From: an uncultured Muribaculaceae bacterium
GTDB taxonomy: Bacteria; Bacteroidota; Bacteroidia; Bacteroidales; Muribaculaceae
Length of the DNA stretch: 64,000 bases
NCBI GenBank assembly: GCA_947176745.1
Contig: CAMWRV010000001.1
Span: 44,220-108,219 of the forward strand
Direction: 5' to 3'
In this document: positions 5,794 to 58,301 of the stretch, piece by piece
Layout: each line of letters starts with the position of its first letter
Numbering within the stretch: the first letter of the stretch is position 1
The notes under the pieces: model-generated
Databases searched by the model: none
Told to the model about the DNA's origin: nothing
Seen by the model: only the letters and a program-made list of their open reading frames with translations
Position numbers and translations under genes: made by a program

Positions 5794-6621
5794 TTATTTC
5801 GGTGTGTTTACAAGTTCATGCCAGTAGGCCCGGCGCAGTGGCACCACAGAATCGTTATGCTCGATCAGCACGGGAGATCCTGTTTCGGGAGATTCGGGCT
5901 CAAGAAGAACTTCTTCGCCGGGGCGAACCACAAAGCGGTATATGACAGTGTTTGCCGATCCTTCGTTCTCAAGTTCGCCGTCGAGCAGTTGTGCCGGTAG
6001 TCCTCTGAGGTCATTGGCCGGACCGTATACGGCCATGCGGTAGTGTTTCCCTTCCTTGTGGTGTCTGCGTTCACGGGAGTTAGAGTCGACGCGATATACC
6101 TTGCCGTTTCCGTCATTGCGCAGACAGAGCACCGGAAACCATCCCTCGCGTATGCTCGGTTCGATGCTGCGCACCTCTTCGTCGGTCAGGCTGTCAAGCA
6201 TTTTTATCTCTTTTTGTGAAAGATATTGCACATCATACACGCCTTCGTCCACCCAGATGTATTGGCCGTCGTCAAGACTCCATCCTCGCCATCCATATTC
6301 TTTCCAGCGTTCGGGGCCTGCTTTGACAATGACGTTTCGAAGCGAATCGTCGATCATTTCCTTATAGTATGATTTCATCTGATCTTTGCTGTCGATGTCG
6401 TGCAGCGGATATGGCCGTTGAATAGGATAAGTCACAAGTTCTGCGAAGCCGGCACTGTCGTTGTCGGCTACCGCGCGGACAAGGAGTTTGACCGTGGCCG
6501 GGAGGGTATCGCTGTTTTCAACGGCGTCCACTCTTGATTCCGATGATGATGAGTTTCCGCATCCGGCCAATGGAATGCCGGCGACTATTGCCATGAATAT
6601 TGCTGATGCTTTGGTAAACAT
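5794..6621 (-). CDS. Hypothetical lipoprotein
   Basis: The track ORF is over-extended. The internal start at 6621 gives MFTKASAIFMAIVAGIPLAGCGNSSS, a lipobox signal peptide. I recognise no family. Confidence 0.6.
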   Translation of the reverse strand: MFTKASAIFMAIVAGIPLAGCGNSSSSESRVDAVENSDTLPATVKLLVRAVADNDSAGFAELVTYPIQRPYPLHDIDSKDQMKSYYKEMIDDSLRNVIVKAGPERWKEYGWRGWSLDDGQYIWVDEGVYDVQYLSQKEIKMLDSLTDEEVRSIEPSIREGWFPVLCLRNDGNGKVYRVDSNSRERRHHKEGKHYRMAVYGPANDLRGLPAQLLDGELENEGSANTVIYRFVVRPGEEVLLEPESPETGSPVLIEHNDSVVPLRRAYWHELVNTPK

Positions 6622-7307
6622 GCCATCATTTTGTTTGTAGTGAAAAATAATCTGTTCTGGTTCTCGTTGCGTCGCGGCATCTGACTGATCTTCCGTGTGG
6701 GAGCGGGTGCAGTTGTCGCGGGTGCCGAAAGTGCCGGCATCTGGTTCTTCAATTGTCTTGACGCGGCTTCGGGGTCTTTGACAAACAGGGTCTCGAATTC
6801 TTCGATCCGGCGCCTCTGAATCTGCGAATGCACTTTCCCCTGGTATCGGCAATGTGCGATATAATTCTCATAGATGTCGCGGTCGCCGGCTTTCAGTTTG
6901 CTTACGACGGATGATCTTGAGGTTGCACCGCTGCCGATATTGTAGGCGAGCACGCCCAGAAGCAACGAGTCTGCGCCGAACTGGCGGAACACCGCGCAGT
7001 TCTTGAGAAGGTCTTTTCTGAGCAATGCCTCGGCGTCTGCCTCGTTCATCGCCTTTGTGCGGCTGAATGTCTCGCCGGGAAGCACCTTGTGACCGTATCC
7101 TACGAACGGCCAATGCTTCGGCTGGTGCATCCCTTCATATTTCTTTATGATCTGAACGGCCTTTTCGAAATCTGACACCGTCTCGCTTTCAGCCGCGGCT
7201 GAGTCTTCGGGGCTGTTGAGGCTCAGACCATATAGACCTTTCATGCCGAATAGGCTGCTGACTGCCATCAGGGCGATTGAGATAGCTGAGATAAGTTTCA
7301 TTTGCAA
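6585..7307 (-). CDS. Secreted lysozyme-like protein (GH24/phage-type lysozyme fold)
   Basis: N-terminal signal peptide MQMKLISAISIALMAVSSLFG. KKYEGMHQPKHWPFVGYGHKV resembles the catalytic EG...GYGH lysozyme motif. Its 3' end overlaps the start of the lipoprotein gene by 37 nt. Confidence 0.6.
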   Translation of the reverse strand: MQMKLISAISIALMAVSSLFGMKGLYGLSLNSPEDSAAAESETVSDFEKAVQIIKKYEGMHQPKHWPFVGYGHKVLPGETFSRTKAMNEADAEALLRKDLLKNCAVFRQFGADSLLLGVLAYNIGSGATSRSSVVSKLKAGDRDIYENYIAHCRYQGKVHSQIQRRRIEEFETLFVKDPEAASRQLKNQMPALSAPATTAPAPTRKISQMPRRNENQNRLFFTTNKMMACLPKHQQYSWQ

Positions 7308-7469
7308 GTCTTTTTCACATAGTCATGCCTGCGGCGACGGATTTGTCTTCTCGCTGGTTTTGCGCCTATGCTGTGATATATGCGGAGTTCTGCCGAAGTC
7401 CGCTTACACAATAGAAAACGCTTTGCCATACAGATGGTTCAGAACTCTTGTTGCCGGGACACAGATATT

Positions 7470-7507
7470 AAAAACAGGCTGCGTGACTTGCCGTGTCATG
7501 CAGCCTG
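7470..7507 (-). terminator. Rho-independent terminator of the alcohol dehydrogenase gene
   Basis: 13-bp stem, caggctgcgtgac (7475-7487) with gtcatgcagcctg (7495-7507). The minus-strand stem is followed by ttttt (aaaaa at 7470-7474 on the plus strand). Confidence 0.75.
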
Positions 7508-7600
7508 TGTCTGTTTCCGGGATGGAGCCTAAGCTCTCTCTGATTTCGGATAATGAGATCGCCTTTTGTCGATATCTGGATTGAGTGTTCAGCCGGAATC

Positions 7601-8773
7601 CTACAAGCTCTCCCGGAGTATCTCCACGATTTCGGCATGGTCCGGAGTCTTGTATCCACCGGTCAGGACAATTGTCGAATCAGCAATCGCATCAAGCATG
7701 TCGGGGGTGACTCCAAGAGAGGAAATATCGGAATCCGCGCCGATCTCCCTGATCCATGCGCCCAGGGCGTCTATGCCCTCTGAAGCCATCTGTTCATCGC
7801 TCTTTCCATTGGCGGGTATACCCCATACGATCTTCGCGAACCGGGCAAAGCGCTTCACTCCGTATTTCATCATGTGGCGGTAGTAGGCCACTGAAATACC
7901 CGACAGTGTCATGCCGTGCGTGGCATCGGTGTGCGCTCCAATGGCCTGTCCTATCATGTGGACCATCCAGTCCTGAGGCTTTCCTTTGCCGATGAGAGTG
8001 TTGAGTGCCCATGTCGACGACCACATCAGGTTCGAGCGCGCCTCATAGTTTTCAGGATCTTTTACTGCCACACGGCTCGACGCGATGACCGACCGCATCA
8101 GCCCCTCGGCGAGATAGTCTGAAGTGCAGTCATCGTCTCCCGAGAAATACTGCTCCATGATGTGGCTCATGCAGTCGAAAATTCCTGCTACCATCTGCCG
8201 TCGGGGGAGAGAGAACGTGTATCTCGGATTGAGTACGGCGAACCGAGGCATCACCTCCTCGCCAAACACTTTCCCGATCTTCATTTTTGTGTCGGGGTTT
8301 GTGATCACCGAGCCACCGTTCATCTCTGATCCTGTGCCGGCCATGGTGAGAACGGCTCCCACAGGTATGATCCGTTCTCCCGGAGCGGGATCTTCCTGTC
8401 TGATCCAGAAGCGTTCCCAGGCATTCCCCTCGTACCACGCAGATACTGCCACTGCTTTGGCATAGTCGATGGTAGATCCCCCTCCGACAGCAAGAATGAA
8501 GTCTGCATCGTTGTCGCGGGCCACCTTGATTCCTTCTTCGAGTTTCTCTACAGTTGGATTTGGCATTACTCCTGACAGTTCAACCACCTCCTTGTCTGTT
8601 GCCCTGAGGGCGGCCATGACATCGTCGTACACTCCATTGCGTCTGATAGAGCCTCCGCCGTAAATAAGCAGGACTTTCCTCCCGAACGGCATGAGTGCTT
8701 CTGCAAGATTTTTCTGTGCTTCATCCCCAAAATATAGTTTGGTGGGATTGGCGTATACAAAATTTCCTAACAT
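7601..8773 (-). CDS. Iron-containing (group III) alcohol dehydrogenase, butanol-dehydrogenase/YqhD-like
   Basis: 390 aa. GGGSIRRNG, AVGGGSTIDYAKAVA and HGMTLSGI are typical Fe-ADH motifs. Confidence 0.88.
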   Translation of the reverse strand: MLGNFVYANPTKLYFGDEAQKNLAEALMPFGRKVLLIYGGGSIRRNGVYDDVMAALRATDKEVVELSGVMPNPTVEKLEEGIKVARDNDADFILAVGGGSTIDYAKAVAVSAWYEGNAWERFWIRQEDPAPGERIIPVGAVLTMAGTGSEMNGGSVITNPDTKMKIGKVFGEEVMPRFAVLNPRYTFSLPRRQMVAGIFDCMSHIMEQYFSGDDDCTSDYLAEGLMRSVIASSRVAVKDPENYEARSNLMWSSTWALNTLIGKGKPQDWMVHMIGQAIGAHTDATHGMTLSGISVAYYRHMMKYGVKRFARFAKIVWGIPANGKSDEQMASEGIDALGAWIREIGADSDISSLGVTPDMLDAIADSTIVLTGGYKTPDHAEIVEILRESL

Positions 8774-12170: not shown

Positions 12171-13451
<1,281 letters not shown>

Positions 13452-13470
13452 CATTCCCGGTTGATCAGCG

Positions 13471-14757
13471 TCAGCTGTCGCTGCGGTTCTTCAGTGCTTC
13501 GAGCCTTTCGGCCATCCTTGCCTCCTGCTGGTTATTGCCTGCCTGCCAGAATTCCTTATCGCGGATTCCGTCGGGCAGGTATTGTTGTTTTACATAATTG
13601 TCTGCATAATTATGTGCATATTTATAACCGTCGTGATACCCCATTTCCTTCATCAGACTTGTCGGAGCGTTGCGCAGATGAAGTGGTACAGGGAGGTTTC
13701 CTGATCTGCCGACTTCCTCAAGAGCAGCATCGATTGCGGCGTAGGCAGTATTGCTTTTCGGAGAGTTTGCAAGATAAATGGCGCACTCGGAAAGCACGAT
13801 TCTTCCCTCTGGCCATCCGATCTTGTTTATGGCGTCGAAAGCGGCGTTTGCAAGCAGAAGGGCGTTCGGATTGGCAAGGCCGATATCCTCGGCCGCGAGT
13901 ATGACAAGTCTGCGGGCAATGAATTTCGGATCCTCGCCTCCGGCCACCATCCGGGCGAGCCAGTAGACTGCGGCCTGCGGGTCGCTCCCTCTGATCGATT
14001 TGATGAACGCTGAGATTATATCATAGTGCATTTCTCCGTTACGGTCGTAGGCCGCCGGATTTTCCTGAAGGCTTTCGGTGACGTTGCGGTCATCGATCAC
14101 GACAGGATTGCCAGCCGGAGTCGCCTGTTCGATGAGGTCGAGAATGTTCAACAGTTTGCGCGCATCGCCTCCCGCGTATCTGAAAAGGGCGTTTTTCTCG
14201 CGAATTTCTATGCGTCTGGAGGCAAGAATCTCATCTTTCTTAAGGGCTCGGGCGAGCAGGTGCTCCATGCCGTCGGTGTCAAGCGGTTTCAGGGTGTAGA
14301 CCTGCGCACGCGAAAGAAGCGGGCGTATCACCTCGAACGACGGATTTTCAGTTGTCGCTCCGATCAGCGTGACCGTTCCTTTCTCCACGGCTCCGAGGAG
14401 TGAATCCTGCTGAGACTTGTTGAATCGGTGAATTTCGTCGATGAACAGGATGGGGCGTCCGTTTGCGAAGACACTGCGTGAGTCAGCCTCAGCGCGTTCG
14501 AGCACCTCGCGCACGTCTTTCACGCCCGAAGTCACTGCCGACAGCGTGTAGAACGGCACTTCCGTGCGTGCGGCCGTGATTCTGGCGAGAGTGGTCTTGC
14601 CCACTCCGGGAGGTCCCCAGAGAATAAAGGAATTGACGCGGCGACTCTCGATCATGCGGCGGATGATGCCGTCAGGACCAACCAGATGCTCCTGTCCGAT
14701 ATAGTCCTCCAGAGTGGAAGGCCGCAGTCTTTCGGCCAAAGGTATGGTGTTGTTCAT
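13471..14757 (-). CDS. rarA: Replication-associated recombination protein A (AAA+ ATPase RarA/MgsA)
   Basis: 428 aa. Walker A GPPGVGKTTLA, Walker [13 protein letters not shown], and a conserved MgsA C-terminal region (YDIISAFIKSIRGSDPQAAVYWLARM). Confidence 0.95.
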   Translation of the reverse strand: MNNTIPLAERLRPSTLEDYIGQEHLVGPDGIIRRMIESRRVNSFILWGPPGVGKTTLARITAARTEVPFYTLSAVTSGVKDVREVLERAEADSRSVFANGRPILFIDEIHRFNKSQQDSLLGAVEKGTVTLIGATTENPSFEVIRPLLSRAQVYTLKPLDTDGMEHLLARALKKDEILASRRIEIREKNALFRYAGGDARKLLNILDLIEQATPAGNPVVIDDRNVTESLQENPAAYDRNGEMHYDIISAFIKSIRGSDPQAAVYWLARMVAGGEDPKFIARRLVILAAEDIGLANPNALLLANAAFDAINKIGWPEGRIVLSECAIYLANSPKSNTAYAAIDAALEEVGRSGNLPVPLHLRNAPTSLMKEMGYHDGYKYAHNYADNYVKQQYLPDGIRDKEFWQAGNNQQEARMAERLEALKNRSDS

Positions 14758-15401
14758 CGGTTTCTGAGAATTTCAATTATGCTCTCTGTGTCGACATCGG
14801 CAAGTGTGCCGACACAGCGGTGGCAGAAGTCTCCGATCTGCGATTGCGGAAGCGTGGTGGTGAGTCCGACCACATATGCCCCCGCGGCCTGTCCGGCCTT
14901 GACTCCCTGTGCCGAGTCTTCGAACACCACACATCGGTGCGGATCGGCGTCGAGCAGTCTGGCTCCGAGCAGATAGCCCTCCGGATCAGGTTTCGACCGG
15001 CTGATCCTGTCGGCTGTCACGATGTCGTTGAAGTATGATTCAAGATGAGGTAGTTCTTCTCTGAGATGACGCATCTTCATATCGTTGCTGCTTGTCACCA
15101 GTGCGCACCCAATGCCGAGCGAGCGGAGAGTGTCAAGCATCTCCCGGGCACCCGGAAGCATTCTGTAGCGCATGCGCTGCTCCATGCTGTTGAGCATGTC
15201 GATGACCTTTGAGTGGATCTCCGGGCTGAAATTCGCATTGAGTATCTCGGGGAGGGTCTGGCCTTTTATTCTGATGGCGAAGTTTTCTATGCCGGTCGGG
15301 AAGTGTCGGTCGATCTCCTCCCATATGCGGGTGTACTCAGTCTCGCTGTCTATCAGGACTCCGTCAAGATCGAACAAAAAGCCGATATTGTCATTATTCA
15401 T
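14754..15401 (-). CDS. HAD-family hydrolase (beta-phosphoglucomutase/phosphatase-like)
   Basis: The real start is the internal ATG at 15401: MNNDNIGFLFDLDGVLIDSE (DxDGV motif I), then LVTSS (motif II) and FEDSAQGVKAGQAAG (motif IV). It overlaps the rarA start by ATGA. Confidence 0.85.
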   Translation of the reverse strand: MNNDNIGFLFDLDGVLIDSETEYTRIWEEIDRHFPTGIENFAIRIKGQTLPEILNANFSPEIHSKVIDMLNSMEQRMRYRMLPGAREMLDTLRSLGIGCALVTSSNDMKMRHLREELPHLESYFNDIVTADRISRSKPDPEGYLLGARLLDADPHRCVVFEDSAQGVKAGQAAGAYVVGLTTTLPQSQIGDFCHRCVGTLADVDTESIIEILRNR

Positions 15402-15618
15402 ATTGAATGCAGGTTTCTGGTTGAATGTAGGGTTCTGGATAAGTCGTCTTGCCGACTTCTGTGACCCGATGCCGCAGGCATGTGGCCACTGTGAAAACGT
15501 TTTTTGCGTTTCACTTATTTCAAAATCGGCCGCTTTGTTGCAACTATAGATAAAAAAAGGTAAATTTGTAGGTTGAAACATAACAGCGGCTTCTGATGCC
15601 GCATATGAGAAAGAAACA

Positions 15619-17220
15619 TTGGTCAGAGATATCACAATCAGGGTAGAACCCCGTCTGGCTGCCTCGCGCGACAAGTTGCTCGAAACGGTGGCCAAAGAGG
15701 CCGGAATCCCGGCCCGGTCTGTCAATGACATATGTATTGTCAGACGCTCGGTCGATGCCCGCAAGCGTCCGGTCATGCTCAATCTCACGGTCAGACTCGC
15801 CTCGGGCGAGGACAGTGAGGTCGTGCCTGCATTCCGGCCTGTGGAATACAAAAATGTGCCTGCCGACGCTCCACGTCTCCTTGTCGTTGGAGCAGGACCT
15901 GCCGGACTTTTTGCGGCTCTTGAGGCCATACGTCTCGGCATGCGCCCTATTGTAATCGAGCGGGGGCGTGATGTCGACGCGCGTCGGCTCGATCTCGCAG
16001 CCATAAGCAGGGAGAAAAAGATCAATCCGCAGTCGAACTATTGTTTCGGCGAAGGCGGTGCGGGAGCGTACAGCGACGGCAAGCTTTTTACAAGAAGCAA
16101 AAAGCGAGGATCTGTCGAGGAAGTGTTACAGACATTTGTGCAACATGGTGCCTCTCCGGATATTCTCGTTGACGCGCATCCTCACATCGGCAGCGACCGT
16201 CTTCCTCATGTTATCCGCGAGATGCGCCGCACTATTCTTGAATGCGGCGGCGAAGTCTTGTTCGAGACGTGTGTCGACGGACTTGTGACCGACGGCACGC
16301 GAGTCACCGGAGTAAGATGTGGTGAAGACACAATCCCCGGCGATGCCGTCATCCTGGCCACGGGACACTCGGCCCATGACACGTTCCGTATGCTCGCCGA
16401 TGCCGGAGTCGTGATGGAGGCCAAGGGCATAGCCGTCGGTGTGCGGCTGGAGCATCCGCAGGAGCTTGTCGACCGCATACAGTATCATTCTCCGTCGGGG
16501 CGCGGAAAATATCTTCCGGCTGCCGAATACAGTTTCGTCACTCAGGCCGAAGGACGCGGTGTCTATTCGTTCTGCATGTGTCCCGGCGGGGTGATAGTTC
16601 CGGCCGGAAGTTCGGACGGTGAACTTGTGGTAAACGGAATGTCGGCGTCGGCCCGGGCTGGCAGATGGGCGAATTCGGGTATGGTCGTCGAGATTCATCC
16701 GGGCGATTTTCCGGAGTTTTCATGCCATGGCCCGCTTGAGATGCTTGCGCTGCAGGAATCTTTCGAACGGCGCATGTTTGAGGCGGCAGGCGGCAGCATT
16801 GTCGCGCCCGCGCAGAGGATGCTTGATTTTGTGGAGGGACGAGTGTCTGACTCACTTCCGGCCACCTCTTATGCGCCCGGCTTGATGTCGTGCGACCTCA
16901 ACGCCATTCTTCCCCCGTTTATATCGCGCCGACTCCGCGCCGGCTTCCGCGACTTCGGCAGGAAGGCCCGCGGATTTCTGACTAACGACGCGGTCATGAT
17001 CGGTCTTGAGTCGCGCACATCCTCGCCTGTGAGGGTGATTCGTGACAATCTGTCTCTGCAAAGTGTCGGCATGACCGGACTTTTTCCGGCAGGAGAAGGC
17101 GCAGGATATGCCGGAGGAATAGTGTCGGCCGCTGTCGACGGAATACGTTGCGCGCGTGCGGCCGCAGGCATGACAGGCTCTGATAATTCAAATAAAGAAA
17201 CAGAAAATGACAATACTTAA
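15619..17220 (+). CDS. FAD-dependent oxidoreductase (COG2509-type FAD-dependent protein)
   Basis: 533 aa. Dinucleotide fold LLVVGAGPAGLFAALEA and C-terminal GLFPAGEGAGYAGGIVSAAVDG. The start is a TTG. Confidence 0.8.
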   Translation: MVRDITIRVEPRLAASRDKLLETVAKEAGIPARSVNDICIVRRSVDARKRPVMLNLTVRLASGEDSEVVPAFRPVEYKNVPADAPRLLVVGAGPAGLFAALEAIRLGMRPIVIERGRDVDARRLDLAAISREKKINPQSNYCFGEGGAGAYSDGKLFTRSKKRGSVEEVLQTFVQHGASPDILVDAHPHIGSDRLPHVIREMRRTILECGGEVLFETCVDGLVTDGTRVTGVRCGEDTIPGDAVILATGHSAHDTFRMLADAGVVMEAKGIAVGVRLEHPQELVDRIQYHSPSGRGKYLPAAEYSFVTQAEGRGVYSFCMCPGGVIVPAGSSDGELVVNGMSASARAGRWANSGMVVEIHPGDFPEFSCHGPLEMLALQESFERRMFEAAGGSIVAPAQRMLDFVEGRVSDSLPATSYAPGLMSCDLNAILPPFISRRLRAGFRDFGRKARGFLTNDAVMIGLESRTSSPVRVIRDNLSLQSVGMTGLFPAGEGAGYAGGIVSAAVDGIRCARAAAGMTGSDNSNKETENDNT

Positions 17221-50815: not shown

Positions 50816-51125
50816 TTATTTCACAAGAGCGTGGCCGGTTCTGAAATCACCTCTGGTCCCGTATATCCCGACCGCTTTTTGGCCTGCTCCTCAATCGTGT
50901 ACATAAAGTACACTCCATCGTCACAGGTCAAAAATCGTCGCAAGCCATACGACCCTGACGGCAACATTTTTTGTGGGATTGGGTCTTTATCGAAACAAAA
51001 GACGAGCTTCTGTATCAATACGCGGTTTGCAACACGCTTTGCATTGATTGTCGGAGATTCTTATAAAAATATTGTTTACCTAAAATTTTCCATAACCTGT
51101 ATCGTGCTTTGATACATCACCATTC

Positions 51126-51133
51126 TACCTTTG
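51126..51133 (+). promoter_or_regulatory. -7 promoter box TACCTTTG
   Basis: Matches TAnnTTTG, 60 nt upstream of the ATG at 51194. Confidence 0.4.
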
Positions 51134-51193
51134 CATCGAACAATCGCTTTAGCGCTTTGCCAAAGCAAAGAAACATTAAAAACACCAAAAGAT

Positions 51194-51394
51194 ATGGAAC
51201 CTATTACAAGTAATGATTTCCTTAACTCAGTTCTCGAAACTGAGGCATGGAAAGAGGTCTCTCAGAGCGGGAGCCTCAGCATGACGATGATTGAGAAGTT
51301 TGCCGACAAACTTGACTGGGAAGAAGTCAGCGGCAACAGTAATGTCATCTGGACGGTGGAGGGCATCATCATCTTTTGCTTTAACCATCTTTGA
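51194..51394 (+). pseudogene. Probable 5' remnant of a repeat-protein gene, truncated where it runs into the 3' end of the FtsZ-like gene
   Basis: MEPITSNDF...MIEKFADKLDWEEVSGNSNVIWTVEGI shows about 1.3 units of a xIEKFxDKLDWxxxSxNxxxxWT repeat. It then reads into unrelated IIFCFNHL* and overlaps the convergent gene by 14 nt. Confidence 0.35.
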
Positions 51395-52118
51395 TTCCCT
51401 GACATCTCCAGACCTCCTTTTCTGCCAATATTGCGGACAATTTGATTTCATCGCCATTTAGATTTTCGTCACTGTTAACCGACCAAATTACGTTGACTGT
51501 TTCCGGAAGTTCTGATATCAGTTGCTGTATGCTTGCCATTTCACTCATCGCCAATGGAGTTGAACGATTTGGATTATAATAGAGATGTATGGACAAATAA
51601 TCAACACAGCTAAAATCCAATTCGTTAAAAGCAGATCCCAATTTTTTAGCAGCTTCTTTAATATCATTACCTGACGTTGATTTTACCGTGAAGTAATCGG
51701 AATCTCGGAATATGGTACTCAGGTCATTGAAGTCGAATGATATCATACACGAGGTGACAATGGGCTGCAGGAGAGCCTTTATTATTTCCGGATATTCATT
51801 GCGCGACTCACATAACATTATACTGTCGTAACAAGAAGGATCAGCATCCTCTGAAAACCCGAGAGTCAGAACCCCGGCATCGTGAAATGTATTGGCTATT
51901 CTATTTGCCGTTTCTTCTAAGTCAGTAAAGATTATTATTGCAAGTTTGTCCTCGTTGTTAGGAATACATTCATAGGGAGGTCCTGCAATTTCAGCAGAAA
52001 CGCCGTCTAATCCCAGTGAGTTGATCTTATTGATAACTTCTTCGATTCCTGTTCCGACACCTATCACTCTGAATGAGGCCGGCAATATTTGCAGATGATC
52101 TGAGTTATAATATTCCAT
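51381..52118 (-). CDS. Degenerate FtsZ/tubulin-fold protein lacking the GTP-binding signature loops
   Basis: By-eye full-length alignment to FtsZ: [17 protein letters not shown] / [43 protein letters not shown] / [47 protein letters not shown] / [38 protein letters not shown] / TVVIGTSLDPDMNDELRVTVVATG. Start is the ATG at 52118 or the TTG at 52142. It overlaps the upstream gene's stop. Confidence 0.6.
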   Translation of the reverse strand: [245 protein letters not shown]

Positions 52119-53172
52119 TATGATTTGGTGATTTAATAGCAATTATTTGAAGTGCAACTTCGTCTCTTAAATTTTCATCAGTTCCTTTGATAAGTGAGGG
52201 AACTATGTCTCGGAGTATAAACGTTGGCTCAAAGGCAGTGTACAGTCGGTTATCTTCTTCTTCTGTTAAAGGACTTTCTTTACCTGAGTAGACTACCATA
52301 ATAATATCATCGGCATCCTTACATAAATCATCCAATACTGGATGAAATTTTAATAACAGATCTGTTATATAGTCTATGCGGTCAGCTTTTCCATAAACGT
52401 GTGATTCACGCCATGTCTCATATATTTCTCCTGCATTTAAGATCTGATATTCTATCATTTCCAATGGGACATTCGTATGTTTGATGATACTATTTATCAA
52501 ATGCTGACGTTTATCAAGTTTTTTTAGACTCTCCATTCGTGATCTTATACGATAGTCTCGTTTACGCTTACTGCGATTCATACGCATACGACGTTTACTT
52601 AGTTCATGCCATTCTCTCCCGGAAAGATAGATTGACATACAATCAGGCTCATCTTTTAACTGTTGTTTCAAATCTCTTCGTGTTTCAGGTGAGACATAGG
52701 GCAGGATGTTTTTAACTTTAAGTTCTTTTACTTGATAACCGTATTTAGTATATGCGAGATTTCCGATTTCGCAATGCAATGTTTCCTTTGTTTGTCGAGG
52801 AGTAAAACCATAGAACGTCATTCCCCACAGTATAGCACCTGCAAGTTCTGCATCTGTAAATGAGTTACTATCAGGTTTAACAATAGTCTTTCCTGCTATG
52901 TTTTCCCAATAATCTCCTTCGACATTATCGGCAAATAAAGGGAGATTACCAAATAAAAAACACTCTTCTCTTAGAATCATGTCAAACGTCACTTCACCGC
53001 CATCGCCGTTAAATTCAGTATTCCTGATTATATCAAAAGCCTCTTTATAACCATAAAGACATGATACTGAATCCTCGTTTCGATGGGTATTTTTTAAAGC
53101 ATTGACAATTTCGTCAAAACTAAGGGAGTTGAATAATTCTTTTACCGTAATTGCAATTTTATTTTCTGGCAA
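52105..53172 (-). CDS. Hypothetical 355-aa protein, translationally coupled to the FtsZ-like gene
   Basis: Long AT-rich ORF. The only possible start is the TTG at 53172-53170, six codons after an in-frame TGA. It has a central basic segment (KRRMRMNRSKRKRDYRIRSR). No family recognised with confidence. Confidence 0.55.
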   Translation of the reverse strand: MPENKIAITVKELFNSLSFDEIVNALKNTHRNEDSVSCLYGYKEAFDIIRNTEFNGDGGEVTFDMILREECFLFGNLPLFADNVEGDYWENIAGKTIVKPDSNSFTDAELAGAILWGMTFYGFTPRQTKETLHCEIGNLAYTKYGYQVKELKVKNILPYVSPETRRDLKQQLKDEPDCMSIYLSGREWHELSKRRMRMNRSKRKRDYRIRSRMESLKKLDKRQHLINSIIKHTNVPLEMIEYQILNAGEIYETWRESHVYGKADRIDYITDLLLKFHPVLDDLCKDADDIIMVVYSGKESPLTEEEDNRLYTAFEPTFILRDIVPSLIKGTDENLRDEVALQIIAIKSPNHNGIL

Positions 53173-53385
53173 ATTTAGATTTACGGTGTATCAGATTTGG
53201 TGACAACCTGAAAAATATTCACAATATTCAAAAGAAGTCAGATTTGAGCATCGAGAGCACGCTTCCCATGTTTTTCTCCCTCAAACGAGTAGTACAAGGT
53301 AAATAGCGAGCATACCCTACACTGCATACGCTGGAACGCCGTGCATTGGCCGTCTCAAAATCTATTGCTGCAAAGTCGGTCATTC

Positions 53386-54291
53386 TCAGTCGTTTTTATA
53401 CAGTTGGTACATATCAGAAATCCACCCTTTCATAGTTCTGCGTAAATGAGTCGGTTCAATCACCTCGACCATTGAGCCGACTTGAAGCAGCTTCATTACA
53501 AAATCGTAAGTCGGAGCCAGAAAAAGCTCAAAATCCGCATACTCCCCGACATCCTCAATCAAACGCTGACTATGATGAAGAGGCAACGATTTAAGATAAT
53601 GCTTGTGGTCTTCATTAGCCCTTATAATGATTTTCTCCGGTTTCTCTCCTGTTCCTACTACTATACCGTATGCTGTGGAAAAGTATTCCTCTGCATTAAA
53701 ATCCTTTGGGAGTTTGAATGTTTCTGATGTTACTTCAACATTCTCCATGCGGTCAAGACCGTAAAGACGAATATCACCATAACGGATGTTATGAGCCAGT
53801 ACATACCAGCGATTCTCAAAGAGTCTCACACAATATGGCTCAATTGGAAAGGTATAGCCATGCGATTTCTTGAAAGGACGATAAGTTATAGTTACGATGC
53901 GATTATCTTTCATTGCCTCCAGGATGGTAGTGAGATGATCGCGTCCGGAAGGTATCTCTTCAACCAATATACGATCCTTTAATGACAGATTCTCCCCGAT
54001 GACATTGCCAACCGCATAAGAGTCAAGCATCCACTTTTTGAGTTTGTCCTCCTCAATATCCTGAGGATTGGCAATGAAATATAAGTAGCCACCGGTCTTC
54101 TGACAATCTATCATGATGCTGAACTGGTCATAAATAGCCTCTCTCCACCGGTTGAATGTAGCACGGTGGAGCGGACGGCAATCGCTCAGTTCCTTGTGGC
54201 GTTGCCACTTATCGGAAAGATCCTTATGAGAAATCTTTCCGGCACGGCGGATCGTTTCAATCAGCCATGTGTATTTCGGCAGTTGGTTCAT
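53386..54291 (-). CDS. WYL-domain transcriptional regulator (wHTH-WYL-WCX architecture, BrxR/CapW-like)
   Basis: 301 aa. N-terminal wHTH (YTWLIETIRRAGKISHKDLSDKW). WYL core ITYRPFKKSHGYTFPIEPYCVRLFENRWYVLAHNIRYGDIRLYGLDRM. C-terminal extension ...VEVIEPTHLRRTM. Confidence 0.85.
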   Translation of the reverse strand: MNQLPKYTWLIETIRRAGKISHKDLSDKWQRHKELSDCRPLHRATFNRWREAIYDQFSIMIDCQKTGGYLYFIANPQDIEEDKLKKWMLDSYAVGNVIGENLSLKDRILVEEIPSGRDHLTTILEAMKDNRIVTITYRPFKKSHGYTFPIEPYCVRLFENRWYVLAHNIRYGDIRLYGLDRMENVEVTSETFKLPKDFNAEEYFSTAYGIVVGTGEKPEKIIIRANEDHKHYLKSLPLHHSQRLIEDVGEYADFELFLAPTYDFVMKLLQVGSMVEVIEPTHLRRTMKGWISDMYQLYKND

Positions 54292-55139
54292 GTTAATGAT
54301 TTAATTATGTCGTCAACTAAAGCTTCAAAATGAGTTTTAAAATACTCACTTCTTTGTCCGCGAGTAGATGGATGAATTGTACGGGCTGCATATTTCACCC
54401 CGGGGATATTAATTCGATCAAGAAACAATCCTTCCCTTATCTGATGGAAAGAGTCATCAGACAGACCAAATTTTTCTTTTATGTCGTTGTCTGCATAAAA
54501 TCCTGTTAGAAAGATTATGATATCCGGTTTAAGTATTTTCACTTCTTCCCTAACAACATTGAAATACCTACATTCTATTTCGCGAATTTCTGGTGTGGGC
54601 TTTCCACAACATTGACCAAAGTCTTTGCCACCCCGGCTAATCTTTGATATATTATTCCATACGACTCCTATATTATAATTAACAAGACGATATGCCAACT
54701 GCTGAATCAACTGATCCTGACGACGGGTAAATATAGACTTTCTAATTCCACTTTCCTCATAGCAGTAGCCATGATAAATGTCTCCCAATCCATAGTACTC
54801 TTCTTCTCCGTCAATATGTCTACCCATAATTTCGGTAACAATATCATCGGAATTACGGAGATTGAAATTATAACTGCCAAATGGATATTTACTGCGATTA
54901 TACTTGTCGTTCCAGTTATTCGTTTCTCTACCGAAAACCATCACACGCAGATCGGCGTTCTCATACGATCCGTCATCGTTGAGTTCAATAAGCAGCGGTA
55001 ACGCAGGTTTGATAGCCTCAGGATCATCGAACAGAGGTTTTACAGCCGAATAAAGTCCCGGAATTTTGGAAGCGTAGAGATTAACTAATTTGTCGTTTAG
55101 TGACTTCTCTTCAATTGGGATGTATTCTATATCTTTCAT
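54288..55139 (-). CDS. Divergent uracil-DNA-glycosylase-superfamily protein (family-4-like motif layout)
   Basis: 283 aa. LRVMVFGRETNNW sits at the motif-A position (GExxG-like). VVWNNISKISRGG...GKPTPEIREIECRYF...LKPDIIIFLTG resembles the N-x-x-K...P-x-x-E-x-x-C...P-x-I-I-x-LG segment. ARTIHPSTRG sits at motif B (HPS). It overlaps the WYL gene by ATGA. Confidence 0.55.
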   Translation of the reverse strand: MKDIEYIPIEEKSLNDKLVNLYASKIPGLYSAVKPLFDDPEAIKPALPLLIELNDDGSYENADLRVMVFGRETNNWNDKYNRSKYPFGSYNFNLRNSDDIVTEIMGRHIDGEEEYYGLGDIYHGYCYEESGIRKSIFTRRQDQLIQQLAYRLVNYNIGVVWNNISKISRGGKDFGQCCGKPTPEIREIECRYFNVVREEVKILKPDIIIFLTGFYADNDIKEKFGLSDDSFHQIREGLFLDRINIPGVKYAARTIHPSTRGQRSEYFKTHFEALVDDIIKSLT

Positions 55140-55164
55140 GATAAAGGGGATTTGTTATCGCTTA

Positions 55165-55172
55165 CAAAGTTA
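55165..55172 (-). promoter_or_regulatory. -7 promoter box TAACTTTG for the UDG-like/WYL pair
   Basis: The reverse complement of caaagtta lies 26 nt upstream of the ATG at 55139. Confidence 0.45.
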
Positions 55173-55242
55173 ATATTTTTCTGTATCATTTTACGTTACA
55201 CTTTCTGTTGATTTCTAACTTCAGACATCCAATTCCTCAATT

Positions 55243-57129
55243 TCATCTAATGTGAGGTCTCTCCGTTAGTTCTCGCCAGTTTTTAATCATGTTGACGAGG
55301 CAGCTTGCCACAAAGTATTCGGGTGTGGTCGGAGGAAATCCCATCCATGGATCATGCCGGCGTAAATCGCGGACTTTGGTCGCAAGGCATGTTGTCCATG
55401 CTTCTCTCGTGATAAAAAAATCCTCATGATGAAGAATGGAATCGTCAGATACATACGAATCATGAACAGCAAGGAATCCACCTTTATCCTCATAGGGATT
55501 ATGGTTCACTTCCCTTGACAATTCTTTTAGTTTTACAAAAGTCAATTCGCACTCCGCCAGCTGATGGTCATAATACTCTCGTTCATTCTTTCTGATAAAT
55601 TTTCGGACTTTGTCCCAGTTTGTGTATCGGAAATAGTATTCCAGCCTCATATCTATGTCAGTAAGATCATCATCATTTATCTGGTTACAATGGATACCTC
55701 TGTTGAGCCGGAGTAATTCATCAATCTCAGATCTATTCACTAAGGAATCAGGCCGGGATACAACGCTCAAAGCTGAGTGCTGTGGAAGATATATCGATTT
55801 AATGGGATTGCAGGAGCAGTCAAGGTGGGTGAGGTTAGGACAGTGGCGTAAATCCAATTTCGTTAGTTCGTTGTCTCTACATACTACTCCTGTAAGAAAA
55901 TCTTTCCGATAAGAGCCCGGTGTAAGGTCGAGATTGGTAAGGCACTGTCCGACGATTGATAATTTCCTGAGTCCGGTACAATCGCCTAAATAAATAAAAT
56001 GCAGTTGACGGGGATAGCGACTGAAATCAAAGCCTTCGATAATCTTTTCCCATAATGATTCAATGTTGATTGTATATGTTCCCGGCTGAGAGTAAGAGTG
56101 ATGGCATGTAACGCTTCCCGTCTTGTCCGAGTCTCCATATTTATCGCAAGTTCCGTCTCCCCAGTCAACAATCAGATGACAATAAGGAGCAATTTCTAAT
56201 GAGAATTCGCAAACAGAATTGTCAGATTTTATCTCAACTTCCAATATCATCCAATCATGTTTCATAATTCCGCGCCGATGAAGCATACACTGTTGACGCA
56301 TCTTTTTTATAAAATGATCGTTGTCGTTGATGTATGGACTTTCAAGGTACTTTATATATAAATCGAATTGTTTGATTTTGCTTTCATAGCGACCATATAG
56401 GTCGCCCAGAGACCAATAGACTTCTGGTTCAACACAACAATACATATCGTAATATCTCTCAAGATATTCTCTGGCAAGCTCATGATTCTGCTTTGTGCCG
56501 TGTCCGTAATAATACATTAGTCCGAGGTATTTCGCTGTATGATCATCTTTCAAATTTTTTAAAGTATTGAAGGCCGACTCATATTCTTCCGATTCATAGT
56601 AATATGTTCCCAACGTGAATGTATGCCGAAAATCTCCTTCGGATGCTTTCTTTATATAATACTCACGCACCGCAGGATTGTGAAGCAATTTCGAAAGTCC
56701 ACACCCTATAGTTGCACTACACCCAACAATTATTTCTACAAATTCACGATCGGTCCAGTCAAGCCTGCGTTCAGCGATATCTTTCCCGAGCTCGCATGTT
56801 AGTATTTTGGCCAATGCGTTATTGCAGTTCTCATATCCGACATTCTTCCACTCAGTTAAGCGGTCAATGGAATATTGAAATTCCTCTTTACTCACATTAC
56901 TTAAGAAAAATGTCAGATTCATAACATTCATCGAGATAAACGAAGTGCCAAACTCGTCTGTCAGCCTATTGGCAATCCGAAGATACTCCTCGATGCAATC
57001 AAGTCCTTCGATTAGCTGCGGACGAATCGAACCATCCGAATTCCATATTTTTTCTCTGAGTGGCCTTAATATTCCTGATGCCTTTTTGACTAAGTCCCGG
57101 GCTCTCTTTTCATTATCTTCTCTTTTCAT
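55243..57129 (-). CDS. Large signal-less multidomain protein: unknown N-domain, Sel1-like repeats, PKD-like domain, leucine-rich repeats, unknown C-domain
   Basis: 628 aa. AKYLGLMYYYGHGTKQNHELAREYLER is a Sel1 repeat. VDWGDGTCDKYGDSDKTGSVTCHHSYSQPGTYTINI is a PKD signature. LRKLSIVGQCLTNLDL...NELTKLDLRHCPNLTHLDCSCNPIKSIYL are LRRs. The N-terminus MKREDNEKRARDL has no signal peptide. Confidence 0.65.
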   Translation of the reverse strand: MKREDNEKRARDLVKKASGILRPLREKIWNSDGSIRPQLIEGLDCIEEYLRIANRLTDEFGTSFISMNVMNLTFFLSNVSKEEFQYSIDRLTEWKNVGYENCNNALAKILTCELGKDIAERRLDWTDREFVEIIVGCSATIGCGLSKLLHNPAVREYYIKKASEGDFRHTFTLGTYYYESEEYESAFNTLKNLKDDHTAKYLGLMYYYGHGTKQNHELAREYLERYYDMYCCVEPEVYWSLGDLYGRYESKIKQFDLYIKYLESPYINDNDHFIKKMRQQCMLHRRGIMKHDWMILEVEIKSDNSVCEFSLEIAPYCHLIVDWGDGTCDKYGDSDKTGSVTCHHSYSQPGTYTINIESLWEKIIEGFDFSRYPRQLHFIYLGDCTGLRKLSIVGQCLTNLDLTPGSYRKDFLTGVVCRDNELTKLDLRHCPNLTHLDCSCNPIKSIYLPQHSALSVVSRPDSLVNRSEIDELLRLNRGIHCNQINDDDLTDIDMRLEYYFRYTNWDKVRKFIRKNEREYYDHQLAECELTFVKLKELSREVNHNPYEDKGGFLAVHDSYVSDDSILHHEDFFITREAWTTCLATKVRDLRRHDPWMGFPPTTPEYFVASCLVNMIKNWRELTERPHIR

Positions 57130-57131
57130 TG

Positions 57132-57482
57132 CTAATATGACTCAAAAATATCTTCTTCATCGGCGCGTTCTTCCGTTGAAATATTCAAATAACTATTGCA
57201 ACACACTTCATCCTGCCATAGAATAATGTCGCTTACGGTTAGAGTTCCATCTGGAGTCTGTATAATGAAATAATATTCGTACTCTGTAAAATCTAACTGA
57301 ATATATAATTGCAGGTAATCTTCATGTTCTGTCAATTCGATTCCCATAATAGCAAGCCACATTTCCTGAGCCTTAATGAAGTCGGCAAACGAAGTATATT
57401 CCTCCGCTACTGCCGAAAAATATGCCTGCCGCTTACGCATCATTTCAATGCGCTCTTTAGTGGACATAGTTGTTAAATCCAT
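57132..57482 (-). CDS. Small acidic hypothetical protein immediately upstream of the Sel1/PKD/LRR gene (2-nt gap)
   Basis: ORF 57132-57509. I prefer the ATG at 57482 (MDLTTMSTKER...) because a TAATTTTG -7 box at 57507-57514 overlaps the upstream TTG. Confidence 0.5.
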   Translation of the reverse strand: MDLTTMSTKERIEMMRKRQAYFSAVAEEYTSFADFIKAQEMWLAIMGIELTEHEDYLQLYIQLDFTEYEYYFIIQTPDGTLTVSDIILWQDEVCCNSYLNISTEERADEEDIFESY

Positions 57483-57520
57483 ACGAAACTTTTTAAATTT
57501 TGGAAGCAAAATTATTTCAG

Positions 57521-57590
57521 AGCTGACGCATTTTGCGGTACACCATAAAAATTATCAAAAATAATAGCTGACGCATAAAATGATACACCA
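57521..57590. promoter_or_regulatory. Two 25-bp imperfect direct repeats (45-bp period) in the divergent promoter region of the island
   Basis: agctgacgcattttgcggtacacca (57521-57545) and agctgacgcataaaatgatacacca (57566-57590). -7 boxes lie at 57507-57514 (minus) and 57597-57604 (plus, TACCTTTG). Confidence 0.6.
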
Positions 57591-57621
57591 AAGCATTACC
57601 TTTGCGATAAAAATAGAAAAC

Positions 57622-58215
57622 ATGAAAATCCTTCACCTTTCCGACACTCACAACTGCCATCATCGACTCCGGGATTTACCCGAAGCGGACGTGGTCGTTC
57701 ATTCCGGCGATTTCTGTATGGTCGGAACCGAACAGGAAGCCCTTGATTTCCTTAACTGGTTCTGTGACTTACCATACAAACACAAGATCTTTATCTGTGG
57801 CAACCACGATGAATGCCTTTATGGAGCGAACATAGAAGGTCTGGACTCAAATGTTTACTTTCTATGCAATTCGGGCGTTGAGATTGAAGGTATTAAATTC
57901 TATGGCATACCTATGTTTTTGAGCGACTGTGTTACAGAACGTCAAAACCAAAACTATGCTAAAATTCCGGATGATACTGATGTGTTGATAACACATTCTC
58001 CGGCATACGGTATTCTTGACTTTGATGATAATATCCACTATGGTTCCGAAGAACTACTTGAAAAAATATCTACGCTCAATCTTAAAGCACATCTGTTTGG
58101 ACACATTCATGCTCAGCGTGGATTGGAAATTATAGACAACGCATTATTTTCTAATGGAGCCATTCTTGACGCTGACTATATAGCGACCTCATCTCCCAAT
58201 GTGATTACAATATGA
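57622..58215 (+). CDS. Small calcineurin-like metallophosphoesterase
   Basis: All MPE motifs are present: LSDTH, HSGDF, GNHDE, ITHSP and GHIH. I place the start at MKILHLSDTH. Confidence 0.85.
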   Translation: MKILHLSDTHNCHHRLRDLPEADVVVHSGDFCMVGTEQEALDFLNWFCDLPYKHKIFICGNHDECLYGANIEGLDSNVYFLCNSGVEIEGIKFYGIPMFLSDCVTERQNQNYAKIPDDTDVLITHSPAYGILDFDDNIHYGSEELLEKISTLNLKAHLFGHIHAQRGLEIIDNALFSNGAILDADYIATSSPNVITI

Positions 58216-58247: not shown

Positions 58248-58301
58248 TAATACAAAAGTAAGCATACAGATAATTAATACAAAAGTAAGCATACAGATAA
58301 T
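58248..58301. repeat. Perfect 27-bp tandem duplication at the right edge of the island
   Basis: taatacaaaagtaagcatacagataat x 2, read directly. Confidence 0.95.

Follow-up and report, generated by a model that had tools for sequence, protein, structure and literature searches.

Glycosylases with the uracil-DNA glycosylase (UDG) fold are proven anti-phage effectors against modified bases, as described for Brig1 (PMC11078745), Brig2 (10.1101/2025.10.29.685425) and Brig3, an alignable Brig1 homologue with catalytic D127 and wedge N225 (10.64898/2026.02.25.707755). Among the WYL transcription factors, PafBC acts at promoters of the form tGTCgg(N10)tA(N3)T that lack a -35 element and are contacted at a -26 element, from -23 to -28 (PMC8635444); its trigger is single-stranded DNA (ssDNA) (PMC8635444; PMC11804915). 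SiwR needs the -26 region too (PMC10693628), and DriD binds an AT-centred pseudo-palindrome, autoregulates its own gene and controls a regulon (PMC10853764). The repressor BrxR is likewise autoregulated and recognizes imperfect inverted repeats with a 5-bp spacer and a better-conserved second arm, two boxes of which lie in its island (PMC9122601). No WYL association is reported for any Brig in the three Brig papers, and our literature search found no paper on a WYL regulator together with a UDG, nor on RtcB-WYL islands in Bacteroidales. Here, we describe a locus at which a UDG-like protein (UDGL, 283 aa) and a WYL regulator (301 aa) are encoded by overlapping genes. It lies in a 64,000-nt stretch of contig CAMWRV010000001.1 from an uncultured Muribaculaceae bacterium, which is referred to as the window.

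The two genes are part of a low-GC block (~39% versus ~54% GC around it) that spans ~50.8-58.4 kb of the window (7.6 kb) and is bounded by an MFS-like membrane protein gene on one side and dnaK on the other. Apart from the regulator, the block encodes a PDC-S10 phosphoesterase, a Sel1/PKD/LRR protein, p125, a DUF6557 protein, a weakly FtsZ-like protein and UDGL, a cargo typical of defence islands and in line with the defence setting proposed at first pass. A first-pass annotation of this DNA had been made from the letters and ORF translations. The sequence-level statements of that annotation all hold, i.e. both open reading frames (ORFs), the motif series of UDGL, the ATGA overlap and the TAACTTTG -7 box. 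It had proposed a self-regulated glycosylase module of UDGL and WYL or, alternatively, a WYL protein that acts as master switch for the whole island. The second proposal is favoured: the same predicted operator-promoter stands before all five units of the island. With about as much confidence as doubt, we regard the block as an inducible, hypervariable island for defence or nucleic-acid damage, in which the glycosylase-like protein is cargo and the WYL protein is the single switch.

The TAACTTTG box lies 25 nt before the UDGL start codon, and a TAnnTTTG box is found at the same place in most related UDGL loci. Alignment of the upstream regions of these loci revealed the sequence AAAATGA(G/T)ACA immediately 5' of this box. 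Within the first 380 kb, the composite search pattern TG[AC][GT][AT]CA-N9-T[AT]nnTTTG was found 38 times, where 0.17 occurrences are expected, and the WYL-anchored loci (939 kb) added another 202. In the window, five of 74 T[AT]nnTTTG boxes carry the element (composite starts 51110+, 53193-, 55188-, 57530- and 57581+), all of them within the island, each in an intergenic region and facing a gene start; none of the other ~69 boxes has an operator arm. The five elements precede, respectively, a small ORF, the DUF6557 gene, UDGL-WYL, p125-LRR628 (LRR628 being the 628-aa Sel1/PKD/LRR protein) and the PDC-S10 phosphoesterase gene. The predicted operator-promoter is thereby present in all three intergenic gaps nominated at first pass (53173-53385, 55140-55242 and 57483-57621).

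According to the logo of 191 unique sites, the operator is a 19-bp dyad with the consensus TGTAtC-N7-GAgACA and an A-rich centre. Its left arm lies outside the search pattern, yet mirrors the right arm (T 0.95, G 0.98, T 0.92, A 0.66, C 0.84), and perfect palindromes exist, for example TGTCTCA-N5-TGAGACA in locus L016. A search with the operator alone gave 238 unique matches, of which 181 have a box exactly 9 nt downstream and nine have it at 5, 7 or 10 nt. A -33 TTTG at normal spacing accompanies 0 of the 191 sites. For most of the 28 gene families driven, the first gene starts a median of 17-29 nt after the box. The sites cluster within a few kb of the WYL gene; they occur in 17 of the 18 UDGL loci with WYL and in two of the six without it, and the distant UDG-like loci have no operator sites. 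The WYL gene itself is the first gene behind a site in 45 loci, which indicates autoregulation. Two other identities of the element were rejected. An alternative-sigma promoter (extracytoplasmic function type, ECF) disagrees with the dyad symmetry and with a downstream element that is an ordinary TAnnTTTG box, whereas a terminator hairpin of the upstream gene disagrees with the occurrence of the element in divergent gaps and with its fixed register to the -7 box.

If these sites mark a regulon, the question arises whether the regulator serves the glycosylase or the island. Two sets of loci were compared, namely 24 genome loci that were all found through their UDGL gene, and a WYL-anchored set that consists of the best 80 metagenome loci (70-81% WYL identity) of at least 534 confirmed relatives, plus seven nearest relatives. 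From the UDGL side, the genes look like a pair: WYL adjoins UDGL in 18 of the 24 loci, downstream in 15 and upstream, in reversed order, in three. The overlap at the window junction (...TTAACATGAACC... on the minus strand, where the TGA stop and the ATG start share bases) recurs with the same 4 nt in 11 of the 15 loci that have WYL downstream. Together with the shared promoter, this coupling and adjacency are what speaks for a dedicated two-gene defence module whose regulator exists for the glycosylase. From the WYL side, in contrast, UDGL is present in none of the 80 metagenome loci and in none of the seven further loci, whose WYL is 93-96% identical to that of the window (0 of 87 overall). 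The expected neighbourhood of UDGL homologues and WYL genes thus stands in one direction and fails in the other. In addition, the WYL family is ~15x larger than the UDGL clade (2078 proteins at E<=1e-10 versus 138 at E<=0.001), six of the 24 UDGL loci lack WYL, and the wider UDGL family is mostly without WYL neighbours. The same operator, moreover, stands before four other units in the window and before 28 gene families overall. The dedicated module is largely refuted by the reverse neighbourhood test, and we consider it very improbable.

The histories of the two genes point in the same direction. In loci L017-L020, UDGL is ~51% identical to the window protein and WYL 75-81%; these identities are uncoupled, and the two genes therefore have separate histories. 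In the nearest relative, L120, the slot before WYL is filled by a 137-aa ORF. On the other side of the regulator, a DEDDh exonuclease gene follows WYL in 61 of the 80 WYL loci, and in the window the stop codon of WYL is followed by 23 codons (MTDFAAIDFETANARRSSVCSVG) that are identical in 21 of 23 positions to the N-terminus of the corresponding protein cluster c15 (RNase_T, PDC-S48-like). The rest of the window DEDDh gene appears to have been replaced by the DUF6557 cassette with its own promoter. Because of the reverse test, the uncoupled identities, the occupied slot in L120 and this DEDDh remnant, UDGL is regarded as a swappable cargo gene that is inserted between the WYL gene and the autoregulated promoter of WYL itself; in most UDGL-free islands, the same operator-promoter lies ~46 nt upstream of WYL.

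Some loci depart from this scheme. In L006 (2199-3108) and L007 (7952-8855), the operator-promoter before UDGL is retained, but the flanking sequence covered contains no WYL gene; in L006, UDGL is directly followed by a gene for an EamA-like membrane protein. Such promoters are either orphaned or served in trans by a regulator encoded elsewhere. L019 contains a 695-aa ORF (5838-7925) that begins with ~80 residues 50% identical to the N-terminal (HTH) part of WYL and continues as a homologue of LRR628. It represents either a fusion or an artefact of ATG-only ORF calling.

A plausible candidate for the protein that binds the dyad is the WYL regulator, as suggested by its co-occurrence with the sites. 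Pfam, PDB profile and fold bear out its initial description as a protein of winged helix-turn-helix (wHTH), WYL and WCX domains. The WYL domain is matched by PF13280 (E=1.6e-15) and the WCX domain by PF25583 (E=5.6e-6), and the wHTH domain was not detected by Pfam. An AlphaFold2 (AF2) model of medium confidence (mean pLDDT 69), built from low-diversity database homologues, places helices at residues 4-17, 22-31 and 43-57, together with short strands, within the first 60 residues (pLDDT ~70-85). Full-length Foldseek alignments of the model to DriD extend over 336-353 columns with E values down to 5e-12. With moderate confidence, the protein may thus be credited with an N-terminal wHTH domain. 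In the profile comparison with the PDB, PafBC (3e-14) ranks before DriD (~1e-8, WYL and WCX), CapW (3e-3) and BrxR (4e-3 for 7qfz and 0.076 for 7t8k; WYL domain only), and in the fold comparison DriD (5e-12) ranks before PafBC (1e-9), CapW (5e-7) and BrxR (1e-5). The protein is a homodimeric wHTH-WYL-WCX factor nearest to the ssDNA-sensing activators DriD and PafBC. Four ssDNA contacts of DriD (Y168, Y192, R204 and W206) have equivalents in it (Y137, Y163, R176 and Y178), but two others (Y240 and R207) do not. Membership of the BrxR family was rejected on the grounds of the weak match, the absence of BREX and a sole known-candidate neighbour that is PDC-S10; neither BREX nor CBASS was found at the window locus.

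The resemblance to DriD, PafBC and SiwR extends from the domain architecture and the best sequence and fold matches to the promoters, which combine a dyad or -26-type element in fixed register to the -10/-7 box with the absence of a -35/-33 element, and to autoregulation and a multi-promoter regulon, both of which are predicted for the window protein. Unlike these regulators, it belongs to a different phylum with a different sigma factor (Bacteroidota -7/-33 promoters), and its predicted regulon is not made up of core repair genes but confined to a mobile-looking, hypervariable island. Furthermore, it is a homodimer-type product of a single gene and no PafB/PafC heterodimer, and its operator is unrelated in sequence to ATACGAC-N7-GTCGTAT.

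If the TAnnTTTG box is placed at ~-12 to -5, the better-conserved proximal arm falls at ~-28 to -22 and the dyad at roughly -40 to -22. Because this arm position, the rigid phasing and the missing -33 element are found together, we favour a predicted activator of the PafBC/DriD kind. Conceivably, control could also run in the opposite direction, with WYL as a BrxR/CapW-type repressor that occludes the core promoter via the dyad until a ligand releases it and the island is de-repressed. This is the less probable direction, though one to be taken seriously. As for BrxR and CapW, the regulator resides in a defence-type island with more than one box, it is predicted to be autoregulated, and its operator is an imperfect inverted repeat with one better-conserved arm, features that are known from BrxR (PMC9122601). 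CapW has been crystallised with ssDNA too (PDB 9c5g, among the WYL fold matches), and the dyad overlaps the would-be -33 region. Yet, the 9-nt phasing and the lack of a -33 TTTG are expected of activator-dependent promoters, and occlusion needs neither; BrxR and CapW are also the weakest matches among the WYL regulators. The window island has five boxes that keep strict phase with the core promoter, whereas theirs have one or two, which lie downstream of the promoter or over it.

The second protein, UDGL, carries the motifs VMVFGRETNNW, WNNISK, PDIIIFLTG and TIHPSTRG. Within its Muribaculaceae clade, M67, F69-G70-R71, N74, W76, W161-N162-N163, K166, R253-T254 and H256-P257 are invariant. The Pfam UDG model (PF03167) matches UDGL at E=0.012 and 16.1 bits, below the cutoff of 24.3 bits, and several of its relatives at 17-23.4 bits, again under the cutoff and over nearly the whole model; NCBIfam gave no match, nor did phmmer against PDB sequences. 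The non-significant PDB matches of a first family profile are nearly all UdgX or family-4 chains in consistent register, with 'TIHPS' on the UdgX 'TVHPS' and 'WNN' on the 'TNAV' strand. An AF2 model from a 42-sequence alignment reached a mean pLDDT of 92.9 and a pTM of 0.91. Its top 49 Foldseek matches in the PDB all belong to the UDG superfamily (SMUG1, UdgX, TDG and family 4, all with a probability of ~1.0), led by Geobacter SMUG1 (5h93, E=1.2e-5) and with UdgX 6io9/8iin, 1l9g and 4zby among the other top matches. In the viral Foldseek library, weak UDG-domain matches were the only ones, in phage DNA polymerases and UDGs. Since sequence searches against the PDB gave nothing significant, the assignment rests on the fold, by which the 283-aa protein is modelled as a very divergent member of the UDG superfamily, as the first-pass annotation had proposed.

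Within the superfamily, UDGL joins none of the families with which it was compared. The first-pass label 'family-4-like' was abandoned: the GEAPG motif is missing, FGRETNNW (FGQETNxW in the wider family) stands in place of GE(A/G)PG, and the best fold matches are SMUG1 and UdgX. A 4Fe-4S cluster was rejected as well, because no Cys occurs among the invariant or near-invariant columns of either alignment. SMUG1 (family 3) is the best fold match, yet membership, for which GMNPGP(F/W) with a catalytic Asn and HPSPRN are diagnostic, was rejected owing to a different motif-A chemistry, and phmmer/hmmsearch of UDGL against SMUG1 chains gave no match. In sum, UDGL shares with SMUG1, UdgX and family 4 its closest structural matches as well as an 'HPS' that aligns with 'TVHPS' of UdgX, and it differs from them by a motif A of the form G-R/Q-E-T-N instead of GMNPG or GE(A/Q)PG, by the lack of conserved cysteines and of a KRRIH loop, and by a clade-specific insertion of ~40 residues. 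The non-canonical nature of motif A had been recognized correctly from the outset. Less well founded was the specific tie to Brig1, which was rejected at an hhalign probability of 1.5% and a best BLASTP E value of 3.8 (with the Brig1 sequence of PMC11078745). Like the three Brigs, UDGL is a small single-domain protein with a UDG-superfamily fold that is annotated as hypothetical and encoded in low-GC, defence-type islands; by analogy, it would plausibly excise a modified base and leave abasic sites. Unlike Brig1 with its GLNPG-type motif A and N145/E147, it contains FGRETNNW.

In the AF2 model, the FG(R/Q)ET motif comes right after the strand 64-69. K166 is invariant among 65 sequences down to 25% identity, in which E72, W161, N162, N163, H256 and P257 reach a conservation of at least 90%. 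An hhalign comparison with E. coli Ung (a query validated against 1lqg and related entries, E=8e-160) aligned a sole segment, motif A, with ADiKVMIFGQET on GDVKVVILGQDP. The putative active site that emerges has a conserved Glu at the likely position of the catalytic Asp of family 1, and retains the base-recognition Asn and the motif-B His. The most probable role of UDGL is that of a monofunctional DNA glycosylase that is active on a base other than uracil. Alternatively, its UDG fold could be catalytically dead and do no more than bind DNA or a flipped base, in the manner of a sensor or a blocker. This would be in keeping with a motif A unlike that of every characterised family, with Glu for Asp/Asn, and with low TM-scores. 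We judge this improbable, as the acid after beta-1, the Asn on beta-2 and the motif-B His-Pro are at least 90% conserved across ~1000 representatives, and clade member P0109 has Asp at the Glu position (FGRD), as expected of a functional acid.

An exhaustive profile search retrieved 1043 representative proteins at E<=0.001, mostly of ~235-250 aa, with the consensus ADIKVMIFGQETNxW ... WNNxxKIGK ... ILKPD ... RTYHP. By its sequences, this is an uncharacterised family of ~1000 representatives that is recognizable by FG(Q/R)ETNxW, WNNxxK and (R/K)T-x-HP and has no Pfam, NCBIfam or PADLOC model. The N-terminal ~65 aa, initially taken for an extra region, are no add-on: they are conserved across the whole wider family, with Y22 and P48 invariant. 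Specific to the Muribaculaceae clade is instead the insertion at residues ~78-118. An identical (100%) copy of the UDGL gene is found on a contig of a Muribaculaceae metagenome-assembled genome, and close homologues all originate from Muribaculaceae or other Bacteroidales. In tblastn searches there were no phage relatives, and the only matches were 25%-identical Arcobacter plasmid sequences.

Some of the more distant relatives adjoin integrases, toxin-antitoxin pairs, AbiEii, a PvuRts1I-like SRA protein, or GmrSD with another WYL regulator. In two proteins, P0230 (892 aa) and P0247 (725 aa), the UDG-like domain is N-terminal and fused to PtuA-like (Septu) AAA_21/AAA_15 ATPases; a PADLOC search with eight wider relatives gave no match except for the ATPase halves of these two fusions. 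In the P0132 group (L105-L110), a conserved 158-aa ORF of no assigned function is always found immediately upstream, and in L112, two UDG-like paralogues lie back to back in the vicinity of a WYL-WCX gene, PLDc_2 and GmrSD_N.

The cargo that travels with the regulator bears on the purpose of the island. The PDC-S10 phosphoesterase (PADLOC E=3e-75) recurs divergent from the cassette in 38 of the 80 WYL loci, and an RtcB ligase is present in 57 of them. Other cargo of related islands comprises the DEDDh exonuclease (PDC-S48-like), a KAP NTPase (PDC-S20/PifA/QatA-like), DprA/SLOG (ShosA-like), an MBL/RMMBL nuclease, tubulin-like proteins, HAD_SAK_2, PLD with GmrSD, and a MoxR-type AAA protein. 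On this basis, the island might be an SOS-independent nucleic-acid-damage and repair response, i.e. a Bacteroidales counterpart of the PafBC and DriD regulons, in which UDGL would serve as a repair glycosylase. The affinity of WYL to DriD and PafBC and a promoter layout that resembles the -26 type of PafBC (PMC8635444) fit this proposal. So does the commonest cargo, which is RtcB, the DEDDh exonuclease, the metallophosphoesterase, the MBL/RMMBL nuclease and DprA/SLOG, and the FtsZ/tubulin-like proteins could inhibit division, as DidA does in the DriD regulon (PMC10853764). However, the sites are confined to a low-GC, hypervariable and patchy island, with none at core repair genes, and the cargo turns over between near-identical regulators. 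It also matches defence candidates and type IV restriction (PDC-S10, PDC-S20/PifA, PDC-S48, ShosA-like, GmrSD with PLD), and the UDGL family is rare and no core gene. An island that is primarily a repair response is unlikely in our estimate, without being far-fetched. The balance favours an inducible defence-type island. The damage reading is kept alive by the strong repair character of RtcB, the exonuclease and the phosphoesterase and by the affinity to DriD/PafBC, and both readings may hold at once, since ssDNA also arises during phage replication.

Three features of the cargo were noticed in passing. In L004, L005, L007 and L010-L013 (e.g. L012 2548-4500), the slot of LRR628 is held by a 580-685-aa KAP P-loop NTPase (Pfam 2.5e-43; PADLOC PDC-S20 and PifA ~1e-31), which is a cassette replacement at a fixed position in seven loci. 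Many WYL islands possess a second divergent RtcB (35-37% identical) beside a second WYL paralogue (24-26% identical), among them L032-L038, L046, L047, L052, L053, L058, L059, L062 and L073-L075 (e.g. L032 2-2600). RtcB-WYL looks like a recurrent Bacteroidales pairing, possibly a counterpart of RtcR-RtcBA. Small FtsZ/tubulin-like proteins of 173-253 aa are frequent regulon cargo (window 51381-52142, minus strand; L120 9400-10089; L117 3878-4399). The window protein matches the NCBIfam ftsZ model at E=5.8e-4 and its relatives match Pfam Tubulin. That they might be inducible division inhibitors, by analogy to DidA, is pure speculation.

The features of the island are compiled in Table 1. The listed starts of four ORFs (ATG 57580; TTG 53172, 57509 and 51131) are probably not real, because they lie inside an operator or a -7 box. 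Likely real starts are 57622 for the phosphoesterase, whose PDC-S10 match begins at residue 11 of the listed ORF and whose listed ATG lies inside the operator, ATG 57482 for p125, and 51194 for the small ORF. In the DUF6557 gene, the listed TTG lies inside the -7 box and the first in-frame ATG follows 64 codons further downstream.

Table 1. Features of the low-GC island, in window coordinates.
Feature	Position	Strand	Description	Basis
UDGL	54288..55139	minus	283-aa divergent UDG-fold protein (modelled); candidate active-site residues E72, N162/N163/K166, H256-P257	ORF, AF2, Foldseek, conservation
WYL regulator	53386..54291	minus	301-aa wHTH-WYL-WCX factor nearest DriD/PafBC	Pfam, PDB profile, fold
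ATGA stop/start overlap (translational coupling of UDGL and WYL)	54288..54291	minus		sequence
Predicted operator-promoter of UDGL-WYL	55165..55200	minus	TGTAAC-N7-GATACA (55200->55182), 9 nt, TAACTTTG (55172->55165); ATG 55139	
Predicted operator-promoter of PDC-S10 metallophosphoesterase	57569..57604	plus	TGACGC-N7-GATACA, 9 nt, TACCTTTG	
Calcineurin-like metallophosphoesterase, PADLOC candidate PDC-S10	57622..58215	plus	cargo, same predicted regulon	
Predicted operator-promoter of p125-LRR628	57507..57542	minus	TGTACC-N7-GCGTCA, 9 nt, TAATTTTG	
p125 (~116 aa from 57482 start) and 628-aa Sel1/PKD/LRR protein	55243..57509	minus	cargo upstream of UDGL	
Predicted operator-promoter before DUF6557 gene	53170..53205	minus	TGTCAC-N7-GATACA, 9 nt, TAAATTTG	
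DEDDh exonuclease gene remnant, 23 codons	53315..53383	minus	MTDFAAIDFETANARRSSVCSVG	
DUF6557 protein and 253-aa weakly FtsZ/tubulin-like protein	51381..53172	minus	cargo; homologues recur in related islands	
Fifth predicted operator-promoter	51098..51133	plus	TGTATC-N7-GATACA, 9 nt, TACCTTTG; faces small plus-strand ORF 51131-51394	

In the divergent gap between p125 and the phosphoesterase gene (57521-57590), the two operator copies (AGCTGACGCATTTTGCGGTACACCA and AGCTGACGCATAAAATGATACACCA) lie 45 nt from each other as a direct repeat of 25 nt, and the -7 boxes to which they are phased are on opposite strands. The gap between the phosphoesterase gene and dnaK, where the island has its right edge, contains a perfect tandem duplication of the 27-nt sequence TAATACAAAAGTAAGCATACAGATAAT (two copies, 58248-58301). 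On the minus strand, each copy has a TACTTTTG box, behind which no gene is obvious. A search for att-like direct repeats flanking the island found none. In L120, whose WYL is 96% identical to that of the window, the island is flanked by genes of the kind usual in conjugative elements of Bacteroidales (Toprim_Crpt, Hc1, DUF6926, Helicase_C_4 and LPD23; 323-2676 and 13113-16888), which hints that some related islands ride on mobile elements. Such genes were not seen around the window island in the stretch examined.

For the inducible island, the following course of events can be envisaged. A nucleic-acid signal, probably ssDNA from phage replication or DNA damage, would bind to the WYL/WCX pocket. 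The WYL factor would then recruit or re-programme RNA polymerase at the hybrid promoters, in analogy to the -26 'sigma adaptation' by PafBC or to DriD, and all cargo would be switched on together, i.e. UDGL, the PDC-S10 phosphoesterase, the LRR/Sel1 protein, DUF6557 and the FtsZ-like protein. The induced UDGL may excise a non-canonical base and so generate abasic sites, which would either block phages with modified DNA or process damage.

Several observations weigh against this scenario. For UDGL, the link to UDGs is structural only and comes from a model, with Foldseek TM-scores of only 0.30-0.49 that mark a remote member; two family profiles found nothing significant among PDB sequences, and the hhalign match that puts E72 on the catalytic D64 of Ung is local and weak (probability 5.6%). 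PADLOC-DB v2, a search proposed at first pass, yielded 0 families at E<=1, and with regard to enzymology and phenotype the family is a candidate known from sequences and models. For the regulator, the assignment of WYL to the dyad is drawn from co-occurrence, and L006 and L007 have sites with no WYL nearby. The ssDNA-intercalating Y240 of DriD and its R207 align with V211 and G179, respectively, and BrxR, a repressor, also has imperfect inverted repeats with a better second arm and two boxes (PMC9122601). Finally, a repair role would suit a large part of the cargo that recurs (RtcB, exonuclease, phosphoesterase, MBL nuclease) as well as a defence role does.

Taken in its boldest form, the scenario would imply that small, hypervariable cassette islands are widespread in gut Bacteroidales, and that their -33-less hybrid promoters, each composed of a dyad at ~-26 and a -7 box, are read solely via one island-encoded, ssDNA-triggered WYL factor of the DriD/PafBC kind. 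In the style of 'sigma adaptation', this factor would act on the Bacteroidota housekeeping sigma factor and release a changing set of nucleic-acid enzymes simultaneously, and UDGL would found a new UDG family that uses a Glu as the catalytic acid and removes a modified phage base. This full combination is rather doubtful. If UDGL is active, its family of ~1000 representatives with a Glu-based motif A would extend the recently recognised class of anti-phage UDG-fold proteins, and its substrate could point to a modification that phages of gut Bacteroidales employ in their DNA. The alternative of a master switch is now backed by a specific and statistically strong cis-element: a dyad of 19 bp that keeps a fixed distance of 9 nt to the -7 box at ~240 promoters and before 28 gene families. 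This cis-code bears on the co-regulation of whole islands in Bacteroidales, including human-gut lineages, for which little is understood about how defence and stress islands are controlled, and the operator is usable as a search key for new cargo genes. If WYL is indeed an activator at -33-less promoters, the mechanism of PafBC and DriD would reach a phylum with a very different sigma factor.

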